In this document: positions 2,487 to 10,751 of the stretch, one piece after another
Position numbering within the stretch: position 1 is the first letter of the stretch
How the letters are laid out: every line of letters begins with the position of its first letter
Source: a virus
UHGV virus genome: UHGV-1843114
Reading direction: 5' to 3' (one strand)
DNA length: 10,751 nucleotides
Notes under the pieces: generated by a model
What the model saw: the letters and a program-made list of their open reading frames with translations, nothing else
Databases searched by the model: none
Told to the model about the DNA's origin: nothing
Made by a program: the position numbers and the translations under genes

Positions 2487-3287
2487 TTACTTGATAAATC
2501 CTGACGCCTTTCCCCGCCTGTATTCCTCCATCAGCCACTGCGCCGGTGTTATTCCCCCAAGGGTGGCGGCGTTAGGCATGCACCCGAAACTTCGCCCTGG
2601 TGGATGGTAAACATCTCTCCCTGTGTCCGGAGGCGTACTCATGGGTTCTGGCTTTGCCTGTATGCTGATCACCGGATCGGGTATCTGCTGTCCGGAAGCC
2701 ACCTTTTTCGCCCAATCATCGAGCAGCCTGCGCGCGTGTTTCTCAACCTCAATCTCGCTAAGCTGGCGCTGATACATTGCACGGCGGGTATCACATACGA
2801 CCCAGTACATAACCGGATGTCGCCACGGGAATCTTTCGGGACCACCAGGATATAAACTTTTTTCCTTGCTGTACCGGTGAAACTCCGCCATCACATCGTC
2901 AATGGTGACGCCAAGAACCATCTTGCTGTCTTTACACCACTTGATGAATTGCCCTGGCGACGGCCAGAACGGAGACTCACTGGCGCGGGCGTGGCGCATA
3001 CCAGCAGAAACCTGTTCACGGGTTCGGATCCCCCCTTCGGCAAACGCAGCAATCCACTGCTGTTTTGCAGCAACTTCCTGCTCTGGCGTCTTCAGGTTGG
3101 TTACCACTGCCGCCGGAAACAGTTGTTTCAGCTGTTTGAAAAGGGCATCAACAAGCCTCTCTGCTGACATGTTCACCACGTTGTCATTGTTGGTGTACTG
3201 ATGCTCATAACCTGACATGCGAGAAAGGGCTTCTCCGTCACGGTTTTGTATCGCGGTAAAAACGTTGTTCACAAGAAATCCTCCCAT
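2487..3287 (-). CDS. Replication protein P-like (DnaB helicase loader)
   Basis: 266-aa ORF. By-eye alignment to lambda P from memory: ...QLFPAAV... / ...ATFPASL..., ...EGGIRTREQVSAGMRHAR... / ...ENGITTMEQVNAGMRVAR..., ...PFWPSPGQFIKWCKD... / ...PFLPSPGQFVAWCRE.... Start is uncertain: the ATG at 3285-3287 overlaps the O-like gene's 3' end; alternative ATGs at 3216-3218 and 3168-3170. Confidence 0.8.
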   Translation of the reverse strand: MGGFLVNNVFTAIQNRDGEALSRMSGYEHQYTNNDNVVNMSAERLVDALFKQLKQLFPAAVVTNLKTPEQEVAAKQQWIAAFAEGGIRTREQVSAGMRHARASESPFWPSPGQFIKWCKDSKMVLGVTIDDVMAEFHRYSKEKSLYPGGPERFPWRHPVMYWVVCDTRRAMYQRQLSEIEVEKHARRLLDDWAKKVASGQQIPDPVISIQAKPEPMSTPPDTGRDVYHPPGRSFGCMPNAATLGGITPAQWLMEEYRRGKASGFIK

Positions 3288-4084
3288 GCTTCAGGGCTGT
3301 TCCAGTGCGGAACGTTGTTATCAGGTAATGTTGATTGCTTCTGTCTGCTAATCTGCAGCCGCCTTGCCAGCTTCTGCTCCCACTGTGCCTGATGGTATGC
3401 CTTACCCTCAGCCATCCAGTAAATTCTGAACTCTGCAAGTTCCTGTGCCGTTGGCAGACTGTCCAGGTAGATCCCCTGCAATGAGCTTTTCCGAAGAAAG
3501 TCATCTGATGGCTGCCATTGTTCATGCATGACAAATTTGCCTAATTGCCCTGGCCCACCAGGAGGAACAAAGTTATTCATCACGGCGTTGTTTGCGCCGG
3601 GGTCATGATGCACAGAATCCCCGTTTTTTGTCCTGCTCTCCCTCTCTTGGTTAAATGACTGGTTATATGACTGGTTCTGGATCCCGTTTTTGGGATCATT
3701 CAACATCCCGTTTTTGGGATCATTCAACATCCCGTTTTTGGGTATATTCCCGTTTTCGGTAACATTACCGTTTTCGGGTTCATTGCCCCCCTCTCGGTTG
3801 CCTTTAATGTTCCCGTTTTTGGTTATATTAAGAGAGAAAACCCGCACTCTTTTTGTCGCTCCCTTTCTCTCCCCGGTATCTGAAATAAGCCCCATTTTCA
3901 TGAGCGATATAAGTCCGGCCTGCACGGTTTTTTTATTCAGGCAAGTGTCTTTAACGAGGCGTTCTATGCTGGGGTAGCAGAGGTTATATTCATCGGCTCT
4001 GTCAGCCATCGAGAGCAGTATGAGCTTTAATGACGAGCTACCTGGATCTGTCTCCCAGGCCCAATCTGTTGCATGTCTGCTCAT
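3269..4084 (-). CDS. Replication initiator (O-like position): N-terminal HTH domain, iteron-encoded Asn/Gly-rich linker, DnaT-like C-terminal region
   Basis: 271-aa ORF, SD GGAG 9 nt upstream of the ATG at 4082-4084. N-terminus MSRHATDWAWETDPGSSSLKLILLSMADRADEYNLCYPSIERLVKDTCLNKKTVQAGLISLMKMGLI matches the HTH pattern of phage replication initiators (memory). Sits immediately upstream of the P-like gene and contains the iteron array. Confidence 0.8.
   Translation of the reverse strand: MSRHATDWAWETDPGSSSLKLILLSMADRADEYNLCYPSIERLVKDTCLNKKTVQAGLISLMKMGLISDTGERKGATKRVRVFSLNITKNGNIKGNREGGNEPENGNVTENGNIPKNGMLNDPKNGMLNDPKNGIQNQSYNQSFNQERESRTKNGDSVHHDPGANNAVMNNFVPPGGPGQLGKFVMHEQWQPSDDFLRKSSLQGIYLDSLPTAQELAEFRIYWMAEGKAYHQAQWEQKLARRLQISRQKQSTLPDNNVPHWNSPEAWEDFL
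3618..3830. repeat. Putative origin of replication: iteron array inside the initiator gene
   Basis: Seven copies of the core tCCCGTTTT(T)GG, starting near 3618, 3681, 3705, 3729, 3748, 3765 and 3810; three are exact 24-bp tandem units ATCCCGTTTTTGGGATCATTCAAC. Also a 10-bp tandem ATGACTGGTT at 3655-3664 and 3667-3676. Same layout as lambda ori inside gene O. Confidence 0.65.
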
Positions 4085-5728: not shown

Positions 5729-6028
5729 ATGAACGTTAATCAGCAGAAAAATCTTCAAAAAATCATGCTGGCATTCGACAAGGACTACCGCCTGTCAGAA
5801 CAGCTATATGACCGACAAGTTGAACTGATTGAGAGCATCCGACTTCATCAACTGTCCTCAACTTTCGACGTTGTAACAGGCAAAGGCGTTCGTCAGGAAG
5901 TGCTGGAGGCTGCTAAAGACAGCCCTGAGTTCGAAGAACTGATGGATTCCTACCGGCGCGAGGCAATGGCAATTATCGCCCGCTGGGATCTGGCGGATCG
6001 GATTGATGGGCAGAGGGAAGCGGCATGA
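5729..6028 (+). CDS. Hypothetical protein (99 aa) upstream of the exonuclease
   Basis: ATG at 5729 with SD GGGAGG 7 nt upstream; preferred over the track's 5714 start. Stop overlaps the exonuclease start (ATGATG at 6025-6030). No family recognised. Confidence 0.7.
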   Translation: MNVNQQKNLQKIMLAFDKDYRLSEQLYDRQVELIESIRLHQLSSTFDVVTGKGVRQEVLEAAKDSPEFEELMDSYRREAMAIIARWDLADRIDGQREAA

Positions 6029-6933: not shown

Positions 6934-7956
6934 ATGTCTATCAATGCACTTAAGGCAGCGGCTACCGGTAACCAAGTTGCACATCATAATGAGAAACCAA
7001 CAACTCTGGCCGGACTTCTGGCAGACCCAAAAATTAAAGCTCAGATGGCTTTGGCACTTCCAAAGCACATGACAGCAGACCGTCTGGCGCGCATAGCAAC
7101 CACAGAGATCCGAAAGGTTCCAAAACTTGCATCATGCGACCAAGCCAGCTTCCTGGGGGCAATTATGCAATGTGCCCAATTGGGTCTTGAACCAGGCGGA
7201 GCTCTTGGACACGCTTACCTGATACCGTTCGACAAACGCCAGAAAGTAAATGGAAGATGGGAAACCGTATCTACAGAAGCACAGCTGATTATCGGCTATC
7301 GCGGAATGATTGACCTTGCCCGCCGCTCTGGGCAGATCCTGAGTATCTCGGCTCGTACCGTACATACAAACGACAAATTCAGCTACTCATACGGCCTGGA
7401 AGAAACGCTCGAGCATTTACCTTGCGAAACAGGTGACCGCGGAGAATTAACGCACGTTTACGCCGTTGCACGACTGAAAGATGGCGGAGTCCAATTTGAA
7501 GTTATGAGCCGGGCAGACATTGAGAAAGTTCGTGCACTGAGCAAAGCCGGTAGCAGTGGCCCATGGGTTGATCACTTCGATGAGATGGCTAAAAAAACAG
7601 TAATTCGCCGACTATTCAAATATCTTCCTGTTTCTATTGAAATGCAGAAGGCTGTTGTTATGGATGAGCGCGCTGAAGCTGGACTTAGCCAAGATAACGC
7701 AGCTGTTATCACTGGTGAATATTCCGTAGTTGACGATGAGCGTCAACACCTGTCGCCAATTTCAGATTCAGAACGAGAAGAAGCTCGAGAATATATCATC
7801 GCGATACTTAATAGCCTGGATCCATCTGCTGAAGATGCAAAAACGATGTTCAAGCGCGCTGAAAATGAGATTAACACCATGGCTGAAAAGCTCGGTGATG
7901 AATATCACCAAAAATTCATGATGACGCTTAACGATATGCGTCCAGAATTCGAGTAA
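6934..7956 (+). CDS. recT: RecT-family single-strand annealing recombinase
   Basis: 340-aa ORF with SD AAGGAG 7 nt upstream. RecT-like segments ...GHAYLIPFDKRQKVNGRWET...LIIGYRGMIDLARRSGQ.... Paired with the YqaJ-type exonuclease. Confidence 0.9.
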   Translation: MSINALKAAATGNQVAHHNEKPTTLAGLLADPKIKAQMALALPKHMTADRLARIATTEIRKVPKLASCDQASFLGAIMQCAQLGLEPGGALGHAYLIPFDKRQKVNGRWETVSTEAQLIIGYRGMIDLARRSGQILSISARTVHTNDKFSYSYGLEETLEHLPCETGDRGELTHVYAVARLKDGGVQFEVMSRADIEKVRALSKAGSSGPWVDHFDEMAKKTVIRRLFKYLPVSIEMQKAVVMDERAEAGLSQDNAAVITGEYSVVDDERQHLSPISDSEREEAREYIIAILNSLDPSAEDAKTMFKRAENEINTMAEKLGDEYHQKFMMTLNDMRPEFE

Positions 7957-8005
7957 CCACCACCGCGGCGCCACACGCGCCGCACTGCAACCAAGAGAGG
8001 TATTT

Positions 8006-8254
8006 ATGAAAGGTGCATTAGGTAAGAAGGAACTCCTGGCGGTGGTGCCACTGTCATGGAGCACTATCGACCGTATGGAGCGCGCAGGTGAATTTCCTAA
8101 ACGCTGGTATATCACTGACAAACGCTGCGCATGGAACCGTGACGAAGTTGAGCGTTGGCTTGATGAACGTCAGGCAGCAAGCCCGGCAGAGTTCCAGGGT
8201 AAAAAGCCTCCTGTTCAGCAACGTGTATATCGTCCTGTGAGCAACGCTGCATGA
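8006..8254 (+). CDS. AlpA-family phage regulatory protein / excisionase-like HTH protein
   Basis: 82-aa ORF with SD AGAGAGG. ...LSWSTIDRMERAGEFPKRWYITDKRCAWNRDEVERWL... matches the AlpA/Xis-type pattern (memory). This family is typically found near P4-type integrases. Confidence 0.8.
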   Translation: MKGALGKKELLAVVPLSWSTIDRMERAGEFPKRWYITDKRCAWNRDEVERWLDERQAASPAEFQGKKPPVQQRVYRPVSNAA

Positions 8255-8363
8255 GTGTGCTGCTAAGGCACTGGAGCAAATGGTCAGGATGGTACTTATT
8301 CCTGGCCTCTGTTTCAGCATGGCTTTATCTGCTGGCATTAATTTTCAGAGAGGGTTGGATTAA

Positions 8364-8663
8364 GTGAGAAAGTTAAGCCGACTTGAAAAATATCACATGA
8401 ACAAGGTTTCAATGCGCAGTCCGTCAAAGATTGTCGCCGTTACTCCTGCGGCGATAGAGATCGAAAAACGCGCGATTGAAAGAGAGAAAAAAGGGCAGTT
8501 CCGCATTGCCGCTCACCTTTGGCTTCAGTGTATGGATGTTGCTTCTGGTGATGTTGAGCGTGCAAGGATCGCGGTTCGCAGGGACCAATGTATCACAAAA
8601 GGTAACGGCCTTCGCCGTGGAGACTATAGCGGTATAGGATGTTGCGGGGTGGTTTATGACTAA
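8364..8663 (+). CDS. Small regulator, ANR-like (AraC negative regulator family) candidate
   Basis: ORF with uncertain start (GTG 8364, ATG 8397 or ATG 8415). ...FRIAAHLWLQCMDVASGDVERARIAVRRDQC... fits the ANR-family pattern as I remember it. Its 3' end overlaps the methyltransferase start by 8 nt. Confidence 0.5.
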   Translation: MRKLSRLEKYHMNKVSMRSPSKIVAVTPAAIEIEKRAIEREKKGQFRIAAHLWLQCMDVASGDVERARIAVRRDQCITKGNGLRRGDYSGIGCCGVVYD

Positions 8664-9306
8664 GAAATACACACTAATCTATGCAGATCCACCCTGGGTA
8701 TACCGGGACAAAGCCGCAGATGGTAATCGCGGTGCCGGTTTTAAATATCCGGTTATGAGTGTGCTGGATATCTGCCGCCTTCCTGTGTGGGATTTGGCCG
8801 ATGAAAACTGTCTGTTGGCCATGTGGTGGGTGCCAACACAACCACTCGAAGCACTAAAAGTTGTTGAAACCTGGGGATTCCGTCTGATGACGATGAAGGG
8901 CTTCACGTGGATAAAATGTGGTAGTCGACAACCAGATAAACTGGTTATGGGTATGGGACACATGACTCGCGCCAATAGTGAAGATTGCCTGTTTGCGGTA
9001 AAGGGAAAACTACCTACGCGCATTAATGCAGGGATCGTTTAGTCATTTACCGCACCGCGGCTTGAGCATTCAAGAAAGCCAGATATCGTTCGTGAAAAAC
9101 TTGTGCAATTATTAGGCGATGTTTCTCGCATTGAACTGTTCGCCCGCCAGACGTCTCATGGCTTCGATGTTTGGGGTAATCAGTGCGAAGACCCGGCAGT
9201 GCAACTACACCCTGGATACGCGTTGGATATTGGCGGATTAACAAATGCATTCAGCAATGCTCCGCTGTCACCAACAGACAACCAGGGGCGGGAGCGTGCT
9301 GCATGA
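8656..9306 (+). pseudogene. MT-A70-family DNA N6-adenine methyltransferase interrupted by a single in-frame TAG at 9040-9042
   Basis: The N-terminal ORF (8656-9042) carries the catalytic motif ADPPW. The same frame continues after the TAG as SFTAPRLEHSRKPDIVREKLVQLLGDVSRIELFARQTSHGFDVWGNQ..., which contains the family's conserved HSRKP and ELFAR...WGN motifs, to a stop at 9304-9306. The track splits it into two ORFs in the same frame. Confidence 0.75.
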
Positions 9307-9497
9307 ACAGGGCATCACCAGCAGATTTAAGAAAATGCCTTGAAACTGCAAACATGCTTGCACACAGCGGGATCAGGTTTGTTCCAATTCCCGCTGTCAC
9401 TGATGCTGAATTTGCAACACTGTCAGCAATATTCGAAAACAAAATTGAATCACTGGCAGCAGAAGCAGAGATGGAAGAAAATCAGCAGAACTATTAA
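9303..9497 (+). CDS. Hypothetical small protein (64 aa)
   Basis: ATG at 9303 overlaps the methyltransferase-frame stop (ATGA). Translation MNRASPADLRKCLETANMLAHSGIRFVPIPAVTDAEFATLSAIFENKIESLAAEAEMEENQQNY. The track's longer 9183 start is less likely. Convergent with the integrase. Confidence 0.55.
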   Translation: MNRASPADLRKCLETANMLAHSGIRFVPIPAVTDAEFATLSAIFENKIESLAAEAEMEENQQNY

Positions 9498-9500
9498 ACG

Positions 9501-10751
9501 TTATTCCCCCGCCATCCACTTCTCAAACTTCGACGGGGAGAACGGAATCAGATCCGTATGCTCCCCGTCAATCCATGAATCAATCATATCGGCCCACTGC
9601 TGCAACATGTAGGCGCGCTGTCTGGCGTATTCCGCTTTGTTATATACGGCGCGCACACCTTTCTGCTCATGTGCCAGAGCCTTTTCAATCCAGTCTGAAG
9701 GATAACCAGCCTCATGCAACAACGTACTGGCTGTACGGCGCATATCATGTACAGTGAAGTCCTGAATATGCTCACCATCTTCATTTATTATTTTCACCGT
9801 TCTGTCGATCAGAGAGTTCAGCGCGGCATTAGATAATGGCTTCCGGAAATTGTAACGACCAGGAACCAGATATTCACTTCCACCAGCGCACATCTGCAAC
9901 CCGACCAATATATCCTGTGCCTGTTTAGGCAGGTAAATAACGTGCGCCCGGCTTCCCTTCATGCGGTCTGGAGGAATTGTCCATGTCCATTTTTTAAAAT
10001 CTATTTCATCCCACGTTGCATTGGTGAATTCGCCCTTACGAACCATAGTGATAAGCACCAGTTTTAAAGCCATTTTCATAGTGCCCATAGCACCAATGGC
10101 ATCCAGCGTGCGGAAGAACAGGCCAATTTCTTCTGGTGTCAGTGTTCGCTCTCGTGGTTTAAATATGGCGATAGACGAAGGTTTAATGTCAGCCGCAGGA
10201 TTAAACAAACCATGACCACGGTCATTGGCGTGACGGTATACGCTACTGATGATCTCCCTGGCCTGCACTGCTGTTGCCCGGCCACCGCGTTCGACAATCC
10301 GGTCACACAAATCACGAACCATCGATGTGGTAATTTCAGCCATCATTTTATTGCCAAGAACCGGAAGTATGTCACGGTCGATCACCGCCTGTTTCATTGC
10401 GCGGGTACTGTCAGCCAGGATGACGTGTTTCATATAACTGTCGGTATGTACCGCAAACGTCTCGGCACCACGAATCTTTTTGATACCGTCACGTTTAGCC
10501 GCAGCCGGTGACTGGCCTGCTTTAAGCAGCTTCTTTGCAGCAATCAGTTCTTCTCGCGCTTCTGCCAGGCTGATACCGTCACGCCCATACTGCCCGATTA
10601 CCAGTGTTTCGCGGCGACCGTTGATACGGTAGTCATAGCGAAACGAGACCGTGCCTGACGTAAGCACAGCTACATACAGCCCGTCACGATCGGAGACCTT
10701 GTACAGTTTGTCCTGCGGCTTGAGGTTTTTTAATTTTGTATCGGTAAGCAC
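9501..10751 (-). CDS. int: Tyrosine site-specific integrase, P4-type; N-terminus at or just beyond the right window edge
   Basis: N-terminal ...LTDTKLKNLKPQDKLYKVSDRDGLYVAVLTSGTVSFRYDYRINGRRETL... is the typical P4-family integrase arm domain. C-terminal catalytic signature HDMRRTASTLL ... ALAHE...VRAVYNKAEY (H-x-x-R and the Tyr nucleophile). The frame is open to the last base of the window. Confidence 0.9.
   Translation of the reverse strand: MLTDTKLKNLKPQDKLYKVSDRDGLYVAVLTSGTVSFRYDYRINGRRETLVIGQYGRDGISLAEAREELIAAKKLLKAGQSPAAAKRDGIKKIRGAETFAVHTDSYMKHVILADSTRAMKQAVIDRDILPVLGNKMMAEITTSMVRDLCDRIVERGGRATAVQAREIISSVYRHANDRGHGLFNPAADIKPSSIAIFKPRERTLTPEEIGLFFRTLDAIGAMGTMKMALKLVLITMVRKGEFTNATWDEIDFKKWTWTIPPDRMKGSRAHVIYLPKQAQDILVGLQMCAGGSEYLVPGRYNFRKPLSNAALNSLIDRTVKIINEDGEHIQDFTVHDMRRTASTLLHEAGYPSDWIEKALAHEQKGVRAVYNKAEYARQRAYMLQQWADMIDSWIDGEHTDLIPFSPSKFEKWMAGE

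Follow-up and report, generated by a model that had tools for sequence, protein, structure and literature searches.

The MT-A70 methyltransferase gene of a guaA-side prophage of the phiV10/epsilon15 type, carried by gut-type E. coli, has very probably undergone a genuine and recent nonsense mutation, in which a CAG codon was converted to TAG. The locus is a pseudogene of the MT-A70 family, properly annotated as one pseudogene instead of a 128-aa gene accompanied by a spurious antisense ORF, and the amber allele is confined to one small lineage, which is known from a few metagenome assemblies. The nonsense knockout of a prophage gene is an ordinary kind of event.

Results

The window, i.e. the whole 10,751-nt stretch of DNA that was analysed, contained the methyltransferase gene on the plus strand. 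The gene was found in one frame of 216 codons, running from the ATG at 8656 to the TGA at 9304-9306, and the TAG at 9040-9042 was its sole interruption, as the initial annotation had claimed. The locus is thereby divided into a truncated ORF (8656..9042, plus strand, codons 1-128 and the premature TAG) and an in-frame untranslated 3' remnant (9043..9306, plus strand, codons 130-216 and the TGA). The catalytic motif IV, DPPW (residues 11-14, 8686..8697, plus strand), whose role has been described previously (PMC7544214, PMC10810198), was located in the truncated ORF. Its D, P and W residues were invariant in 85 of 85 homologs, a set taken from 80 genomes, each representing a species, and from 5 further intact loci. 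The 3' remnant held, on the same strand, the motifs HSRKP (residues 138-142, 9067-9081), ELFAR (residues 160-164, 9133-9147) and WGN (residues 173-175, 9172-9180). The earlier description of the stop as lying between the catalytic motif and these C-terminal motifs was thus correct, codon 129 being placed after residues 11-14 and before residues 138-175.

The profile search that had been suggested as a check was run on the whole frame with the TAG read as X. It returned a full-length MT-A70 domain (Pfam PF05063, positions 1-172 of 172, 79.4 bits, E = 4e-22), with a score well over the curated cut-off of 23.9 bits. When the halves were scored separately, the N-terminal piece reached 51.3 bits (profile positions 1-110) and the C-terminal piece 25.0 bits (profile positions 129-172). 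The DPPW at residues 11-14 conforms to the (D/N/S)PP(Y/F/W) pattern of motif IV by which the MT-A70 family is recognized; an uninterrupted ORF for the whole domain is no longer present, as the TAG at codon 129 removes 88 residues. This TAG was the only amber stop among the 22 genes on the contig, which is not significant, because TAG is rare as a stop codon in E. coli.

The origin of the stop was established by comparison with intact alleles. The studied gene was 99.7% identical to intact genes annotated as 'MT-A70 family methyltransferase' in E. coli prophages, so the match to the family is not a matter of chance; its identity to phage phiV10 gene 33 was 98.3%. The nearest intact allele (WP_000163459.1), from the guaA prophage of E. 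coli Ecol_AZ162, differed at only 2 of 651 nt, namely G>A at 8869 and C>T at 9040, compared with 11 of 651 nt for phiV10 gp33 (YP_512288.1, annotated as 'DNA methyltransferase'). The latter change is a single transition that turned CAG (Gln129) into TAG, and the former (8869..8869, plus strand) replaced Ala72 with Thr at a site with at least 90% conservation. In both AZ162 and phiV10 gp33, codon 129 is CAG (Gln), codon 72 specifies Ala and the encoded protein has the full length of 216 aa. Among the five relatives compared, all with CAG at codon 129, the changes at 8869 and 9040 were the only ones private to the window. The two are G:C to A:T transitions, both alter the protein, and the repaired protein with T72 and Q129 was absent from approximately 15 billion recorded proteins. 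The sense codon which the initial annotation had proposed to look for at 9040-9042 in intact orthologs is therefore CAG, and its statement that conservation downstream of the stop was fully retained agrees with the 0 differences found 3' of the TAG with respect to the nearest intact allele.

The distribution of the two alleles was determined with a 71-nt query centred on codon 129, used in the TAG version and in a version with the C restored. No identical match to the TAG version was found among approximately 530 (527 matching) complete-genome records of E. coli or among 17 phage records. For the CAG version, 269 E. coli records showed 100% identity, so the stop is a derived state, private to its lineage. 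Of the three explanations offered by the initial annotation (a very recent nonsense mutation, a sequencing error or expression by amber suppression), the first was upheld by the single C>T change, its restriction to one lineage and the distance of 2 of 651 nt from the nearest intact allele, and the second failed for the reasons given in the Discussion.

The residue lost at the stop is highly conserved. Position 129 was occupied by Gln in 81 of the 85 homologs and by Ser in the remaining 4, and in an alignment of 33 relatives, which reached down to 59% identity, Gln129 did not vary. A further seven residues encoded after the stop (S139, K141, P142, E160, F162, W173 and G174) were invariant in 85 of 85 homologs. 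The MT-A70 enzymes belong to class beta, in which motif IV comes first, followed by the target-recognition region and, last, by the cofactor-binding motif I region (PMC7544214). With DPPW at the beginning and the SAM-binding part at the end, the 128-aa product would thus be devoid of its cofactor-binding part. The fold was assessed on a model of the intact ortholog P0032 (AlphaFold, pLDDT 70.8, pTM 0.72) and not on a model of the TAG allele itself. In this model, strands 130-134, 158-161 and 171-173 and helix 143-153 followed the position of the stop. A Foldseek comparison of the same model with METTL3 (E = 2.4e-14, TM 0.65-0.69, approximately 205-210 columns) covered the whole length, and the intact ortholog is accordingly predicted to adopt the METTL3-like Rossmann fold with a C-terminal cofactor-binding half. 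METTL3 and ciliate MTA1 share the MT-A70 fold, class beta and motif IV DPPW with the family of the window enzyme, and their PDB chains were also matched by sequence (E = 2e-13 to 1e-5, approximately 20% identity). The two are partner-dependent; they differ in being multi-domain proteins with partners on the eukaryotic side, METTL14 or MTA9.

Translation of the amber allele would stop after residue 128. The resulting product would keep DPPW and would lose three core beta strands, a helix and the seven invariant residues from what is predicted to be a single-domain fold. Such a polypeptide would probably be incapable of binding the cofactor or of folding properly. Judged by the sequence and the ortholog model, the amber allele should be a null allele with an inactive product.

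The 10,751 nt of the window coincide exactly with the beginning of a metagenome contig of 15,472 nt (ENA ERZ1303749, NODE_1576, coverage 43x). The prophage at guaA to which they belong is phiV10/epsilon15-like, and the window covers its early-left arm. On the plus strand, the genes were arranged in the order repressor-like HTH, two small ORFs, YqaJ, RecT, AlpA-like, PerC-like, methyltransferase and DUF1382. The AlpA-like excisionase/regulator gene (8006..8254, plus strand, PF05930) lies upstream of the methyltransferase in the same operon. The gene for the PerC-family small protein (8412..8663, plus strand; phrog_868; PF06069, 30.5 bits, cut-off 22.6) has an alternative GTG start at 8364 and, at its stop, shares 8 nt with the start of the methyltransferase gene. 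The TGA of the methyltransferase in turn overlaps the ATG of the DUF1382 gene (9303..9497, plus strand; PF07131, 105 bits) in the sequence ATGA, so that DUF1382 would normally be translationally coupled to the methyltransferase; DUF1382 also has a GGGAG of its own 8 nt upstream. The prophage ends with a tyrosine integrase gene on the minus strand (9501..10751), past which the contig continues into guaA, guaB and xseA, its chromosomal flank being 100% identical to several E. coli genomes. The AZ162 prophage, which likewise adjoins guaA, shares the operon of AlpA-like, PerC-like, MT-A70 and DUF1382 genes as well as the divergent integrase, and the operon order around phiV10 gp33 is also that of the window. 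All other window genes were of the same length as in intact relatives, which leaves the methyltransferase as the only visible casualty.

The release of ribosomes 260 nt ahead of the overlapping DUF1382 start might reduce DUF1382 expression, and a polar effect on this gene is possible, if speculative. The segment 9043-9302 contained 66 C and 68 G, with no obvious C-rich, G-poor tract of the kind associated with Rho-type polarity. A scan of 7900-9700 for sigma-70 and terminator consensus sequences gave nothing above shuffles, and the terminator that lies upstream of gp6 in phage phiPA8 was absent from the window.

The function of the intact enzyme was considered in the light of its closest characterised homolog, the MT-A70/DPPW protein gp5 of the Stx2a phage phiPA8, named M.EcoPA8orf6770P (Gong, Chakraborty & Koudelka 2023, PMC10810198). 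This protein has weak, non-specific activity without its partner; together with PNB-2, which is encoded by the gene directly upstream, it assembles into a 1:1 complex with a preference for 16S rRNA/30S over DNA (PMC10810198). It raises spontaneous prophage induction, a DPPW-to-APPA mutant does not complement, and in phage phiPA2 both spontaneous induction and virulence are lowered by an IS629 insertion in the corresponding gene (PMC10810198). The DPPW primer and the reverse primers of that study mapped onto phage PA28, whose gp05 shared 83% identity with the window protein across residues 1-187, which makes the window enzyme a close relative of that catalytic subunit. The systems also resemble each other in the location near the integrase end, in the presence of DUF1382 as the next gene (the two DUF1382 proteins are 51% identical) and in a small overlapping gene in front of the methyltransferase. 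They differ in the host phage, which is a Stx lambdoid phage (Sepvirinae) in the case of phiPA8 and a phiV10-like Uetakevirus in the case of the window. The phiPA2 insertion is a natural loss-of-function precedent with a measured phenotype, although it was caused by an IS element and not by a nonsense codon as in the window.

PNB-2, recognized as a 143-aa protein when the published primer and terminator were mapped onto Ss-VASD and P13771, was not encoded directly upstream of the window methyltransferase, where the PerC-like gene was found in its place. The PerC-like protein had no BLASTP similarity to PNB-2 and an hhalign probability of 0.7%; remote homology between the two was rejected on these grounds, a weak hint being limited to their N-terminal wHTH-like parts. 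The C-terminal tails of the enzymes also diverged past residue 187 (PGYALDIGGLTNAFSNAPLSPTDNQGRERAA in the window protein versus VPGIVKFLEKTNERKNDVDKGITS in the Stx-phage enzyme). The C-terminal approximately 27 residues of M.EcoPA8orf6770P have been proposed as necessary for PNB-2 binding (PMC10810198), and a counterpart of this segment was not present in the window enzyme, as the alignment stops at residue 187. The analogy with phiPA8 is weaker because of this different tail and the lack of PNB-2.

A second prophage-borne enzyme highly similar to M.EcoPA8orf6770P is M.EcoGV of E. coli O104:H4, which, as the work of Fang et al. 2012 is summarized in PMC10810198, is weakly expressed in the lysogen and leads to GATC methylation in DNA when overproduced. 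M.EcoGI and M.EcoGII, both of which are 349-aa DPPY enzymes, and the plasmid-borne M.EcoGIX were rejected as identities of the window enzyme.

The initial annotation had started from the premise that MT-A70 methylases of phages usually protect phage DNA from restriction, and had expected the loss of the gene to matter for host range. Neither view fits well with the phiPA8 comparison. As the closest characterised homolog (83%) is a partner-dependent 16S rRNA methyltransferase that raises induction, anti-restriction does not appear to be the best supported reading of the window enzyme. An enzyme with 83% identity raises induction and its IS629 knockout lowers it; by analogy, the likeliest phenotype of the loss would therefore be a quieter, more stable lysogen, rather than a changed restriction host range.

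Discussion

The comparison of alleles identified the amber codon as the product of a single recent transition. Other disrupted alleles of the same gene were also encountered, including alleles frameshifted after residue 113 (on 65 contigs), residue 138 or residue 154, a deletion of approximately 360 nt that fused codon 161 to sequence past DUF1382, and N-terminal replacements. Intact alleles were dominant, with 2,905 members in the full-length cluster, the commonest alleles on 576 to 1,000 or more contigs, and an intact methyltransferase in 79 of 80 species representatives. Loss of the methyltransferase is thus recurrent yet uncommon, which is compatible with a gene that is dispensable to the lysogen.

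A possible, although rather unlikely, refinement of the main explanation is that the stop was selected, as an adaptive knockout that would lessen spontaneous induction or toxicity and make the lysogen stabler. The several independent disruptions in E. coli prophages, with one frameshift allele on as many as 65 contigs, would agree with selection, as would the decreased spontaneous induction of the phiPA2 IS629 knockout (PMC10810198) and the fact that neither of the private substitutions in the lineage was silent. However, intact alleles far outnumber disrupted ones, the amber allele itself is rare (4-5 contigs), two substitutions provide no statistical power, and the neutral decay of prophage genes happens anyway.

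The amber suppression proposed as an option by the initial annotation would make expression conditional, with some full-length enzyme produced in a host whose amber suppressor tRNA is supE-like, inserting Gln, or of another type. The ancestral codon was CAG, so a Gln-inserting suppressor would give back exactly the wild-type protein, in which Gln129 is invariant or nearly so, and the 3' part of the gene has sustained no further damage. The undamaged 3' part is, however, equally well explained by recency, because only two private changes have accumulated in total. Moreover, TAG was present at this site in none of the E. coli and phage records searched, and a codon unshared with relatives is not a conserved regulatory feature. 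The base directly 3' of the TAG is T, which reportedly makes a poor context for suppression, and wild E. coli seldom carries suppressor alleles. A literature search on amber suppressors of natural origin yielded nothing usable. No tRNA gene was detected by ARAGORN in the window, the rest of the prophage being outside the contig. The classical supE-suppressible phage ambers are of the same mutational type (CAG to TAG), and a Gln-inserting suppressor likewise restores the wild-type protein in them, but they are conditional lethals selected in the laboratory on suppressor hosts, whereas the window gene is non-essential and nothing points to a suppressor host. Suppression consequently appears very improbable, and a recent loss of function remains our preferred reading.

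It is just as hard to credit that the fragments of the interrupted gene are functional, either with the 128-aa piece acting in a dominant-negative or regulatory manner through binding of a partner or nucleic acid, or with a split enzyme restored by re-initiation. The N-terminal piece does keep DPPW and four predicted core strands, and class beta enzymes work as dimers (PMC7544214). The first in-frame start 3' of the TAG is the GTG at 9103 (Val150), which is not preceded by a Shine-Dalgarno sequence, so a complementing C-terminal fragment is not expected; its product would in any case be devoid of residues 129-149, including the invariant S139, K141 and P142, and re-initiation to give a split enzyme was rejected on this basis. 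The ortholog model also argues against autonomous pieces, as the N- and C-terminal strands are predicted to be interleaved in the sheet of a single-domain fold.

The authenticity of the allele was supported by its presence in other assemblies. The exact 128-aa product was on record in 4-5 metagenome contigs. They included a Logan contig of ERR1190736, identical to the window over 7.3 kb, and a haplotype from ERZ27272418 that is distinguished by two SNPs, at 733 and 754, and by a difference of one unit in a perfect 24-nt tandem repeat within the DnaT-like gene; the ERZ1303749 and ERR1190736 contigs possibly come from one sample, and independence is mainly provided by the ERZ27272418 haplotype. 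As different assemblers and a distinct haplotype gave the same product, a sequencing error is very unlikely. An artefact concealing a true CAG, which the initial annotation had allowed for and which a short-read metagenome assembly as source might suggest, can be set aside as exceedingly improbable, given the 43x coverage of the contig, the location of 9040 outside any homopolymer and the recovery of the 128-aa product through three routes of assembly (NODE_, k119_ and Logan), among them the one that gave the distinct haplotype.

The gene immediately upstream also deserves comment. Directly upstream of the homologs, a PerC-like ORF was found more often than any other neighbour, in 13 of the surveyed loci. 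In E. coli, the start of the methyltransferase gene was abutted or overlapped by such an ORF, and the arrangement recurred in seven further loci at the species level, with enzymes only 43-69% identical; in four of these seven, a wHTH-like domain preceded the PerC-like module in a fusion. Natural ORFs in which PerC and the methyltransferase are fused also occur, though rarely. A covariation between the type of tail and the upstream partner was considered and not supported, as the locus L055, with a PerC-like partner, and the loci L062 and L066, with PNB-2-like partners, have similar tails. A literature search for PerC together with MT-A70 yielded no usable report. The idea that PerC-family small proteins are partner or specificity subunits of prophage MT-A70 methyltransferases, in a role like that of PNB-2, is a tentative one, and we consider it improbable.

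By itself, the amber allele is one more prophage pseudogene of a well-known methyltransferase gene. The analysis corrects the default view of the window methyltransferase as an anti-restriction device. The allele is also of minor value as a natural point-mutant null of a family whose only characterised close relative controls induction by rRNA methylation, and with one T-to-C reversion an isogenic pair could be obtained, suited both to the control of induction in phiV10-type prophages and to the question of the PerC-like partner. If the proposed partnership were true, the amber allele would be a natural knockout, possibly a selected one, of a regulator of lysogen stability that consists of two subunits and modifies RNA/DNA. 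The virulence regulators of the PerC/Pch family would then be linked, unexpectedly, to an enzyme.

Upstream gene and fusion proteins

Across Enterobacterales, the gene most commonly found directly upstream of MT-A70 genes of this methyltransferase family was a PerC-family ORF, which in most cases overlapped the start of the methyltransferase gene. Such an ORF was located at 8412-8663 in the window and was also present in the comparison loci L027, L028, L031, L033, L055, L065 and L077 (upstream of position ~2500), as well as in L011 and L012. In L027, L031, L065 and L077, the encoded protein had approximately 150 aa, with a wHTH-like domain at its N-terminus and the PerC-like module as its C-terminal half. 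In Stx phages, the slot filled by the PerC-family ORF in the window is occupied by PNB-2, the proven partner subunit of the homologous methyltransferase M.EcoPA8orf6770P. The PerC-like protein and the methyltransferase were also found joined in two natural ORFs, P0033 (297 aa) and P0031 (263 aa), corresponding to window positions 8651-8659. The fusions were consistent with the loss of one T from the GGTTTATGA overlap and were rare, with 2-3 member sequences each.

Damaged alleles and variable neighbouring sequences

Another recorded allele, P0042 (225 aa, 9 contigs), carried a deletion of approximately 360 nt joining window position ~9140 to ~9508, which removed the 3' end of the methyltransferase gene together with the entire DUF1382 gene. 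Past the deletion, its frame continued into sequence antisense to the end of the integrase gene. In E. coli ST95-32 (L006), a Ser/Thr protein phosphatase gene (9896-10555) was located where the window has DUF1382 (9303-9497); this exchange 3' of the methyltransferase is a mosaic swap in some otherwise very similar prophages. Among the 80 species-representative loci, a single one, from Paenibacillus apiarius (L064, 2333-2533), had a methyltransferase frame open for only 66 codons and without a DPPW match, so the gene there may represent a further disrupted copy.

The metagenome annotation placed a 67-aa antisense ORF (9047-9250, minus strand) in the part of the methyltransferase gene that is no longer translated because of the premature stop. 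It had no Pfam match, and the intact relatives examined had no annotated gene at this place; the ORF most likely arose as an artefact of gene calling.

Within the DnaT-like gene on the minus strand (3269-4084), a 24-nt unit was repeated perfectly in tandem, with 2.6 copies (3681-3742). In L004, the other amber-bearing haplotype, the repeat was one unit shorter (263 aa versus 271 aa in the window). The DnaT-like protein of E. coli Z1323CEC0011 had 279 aa, its gene being 24 nt longer, a length that would fit one added unit. The repeat is an in-frame copy-number polymorphism of a replication protein.

Independent loss of the methyltransferase and its neighbour

The intact methyltransferase allele closest to that of the window is carried by E. 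coli Ecol_AZ162 (L001), and in this strain the PerC-like gene (5758-6008) was annotated as frameshifted. Therefore, either member of the pair can be lost without the other. In phage PA28 (L007), the site of the 143-aa PNB-2 was occupied by a 62-aa ORF (gp06, 2416-2604) that had only the last 10 residues (LYIDEFENAL) in common with PNB-2; thus, some Stx phages with a full-length methyltransferase may lack a functional partner.
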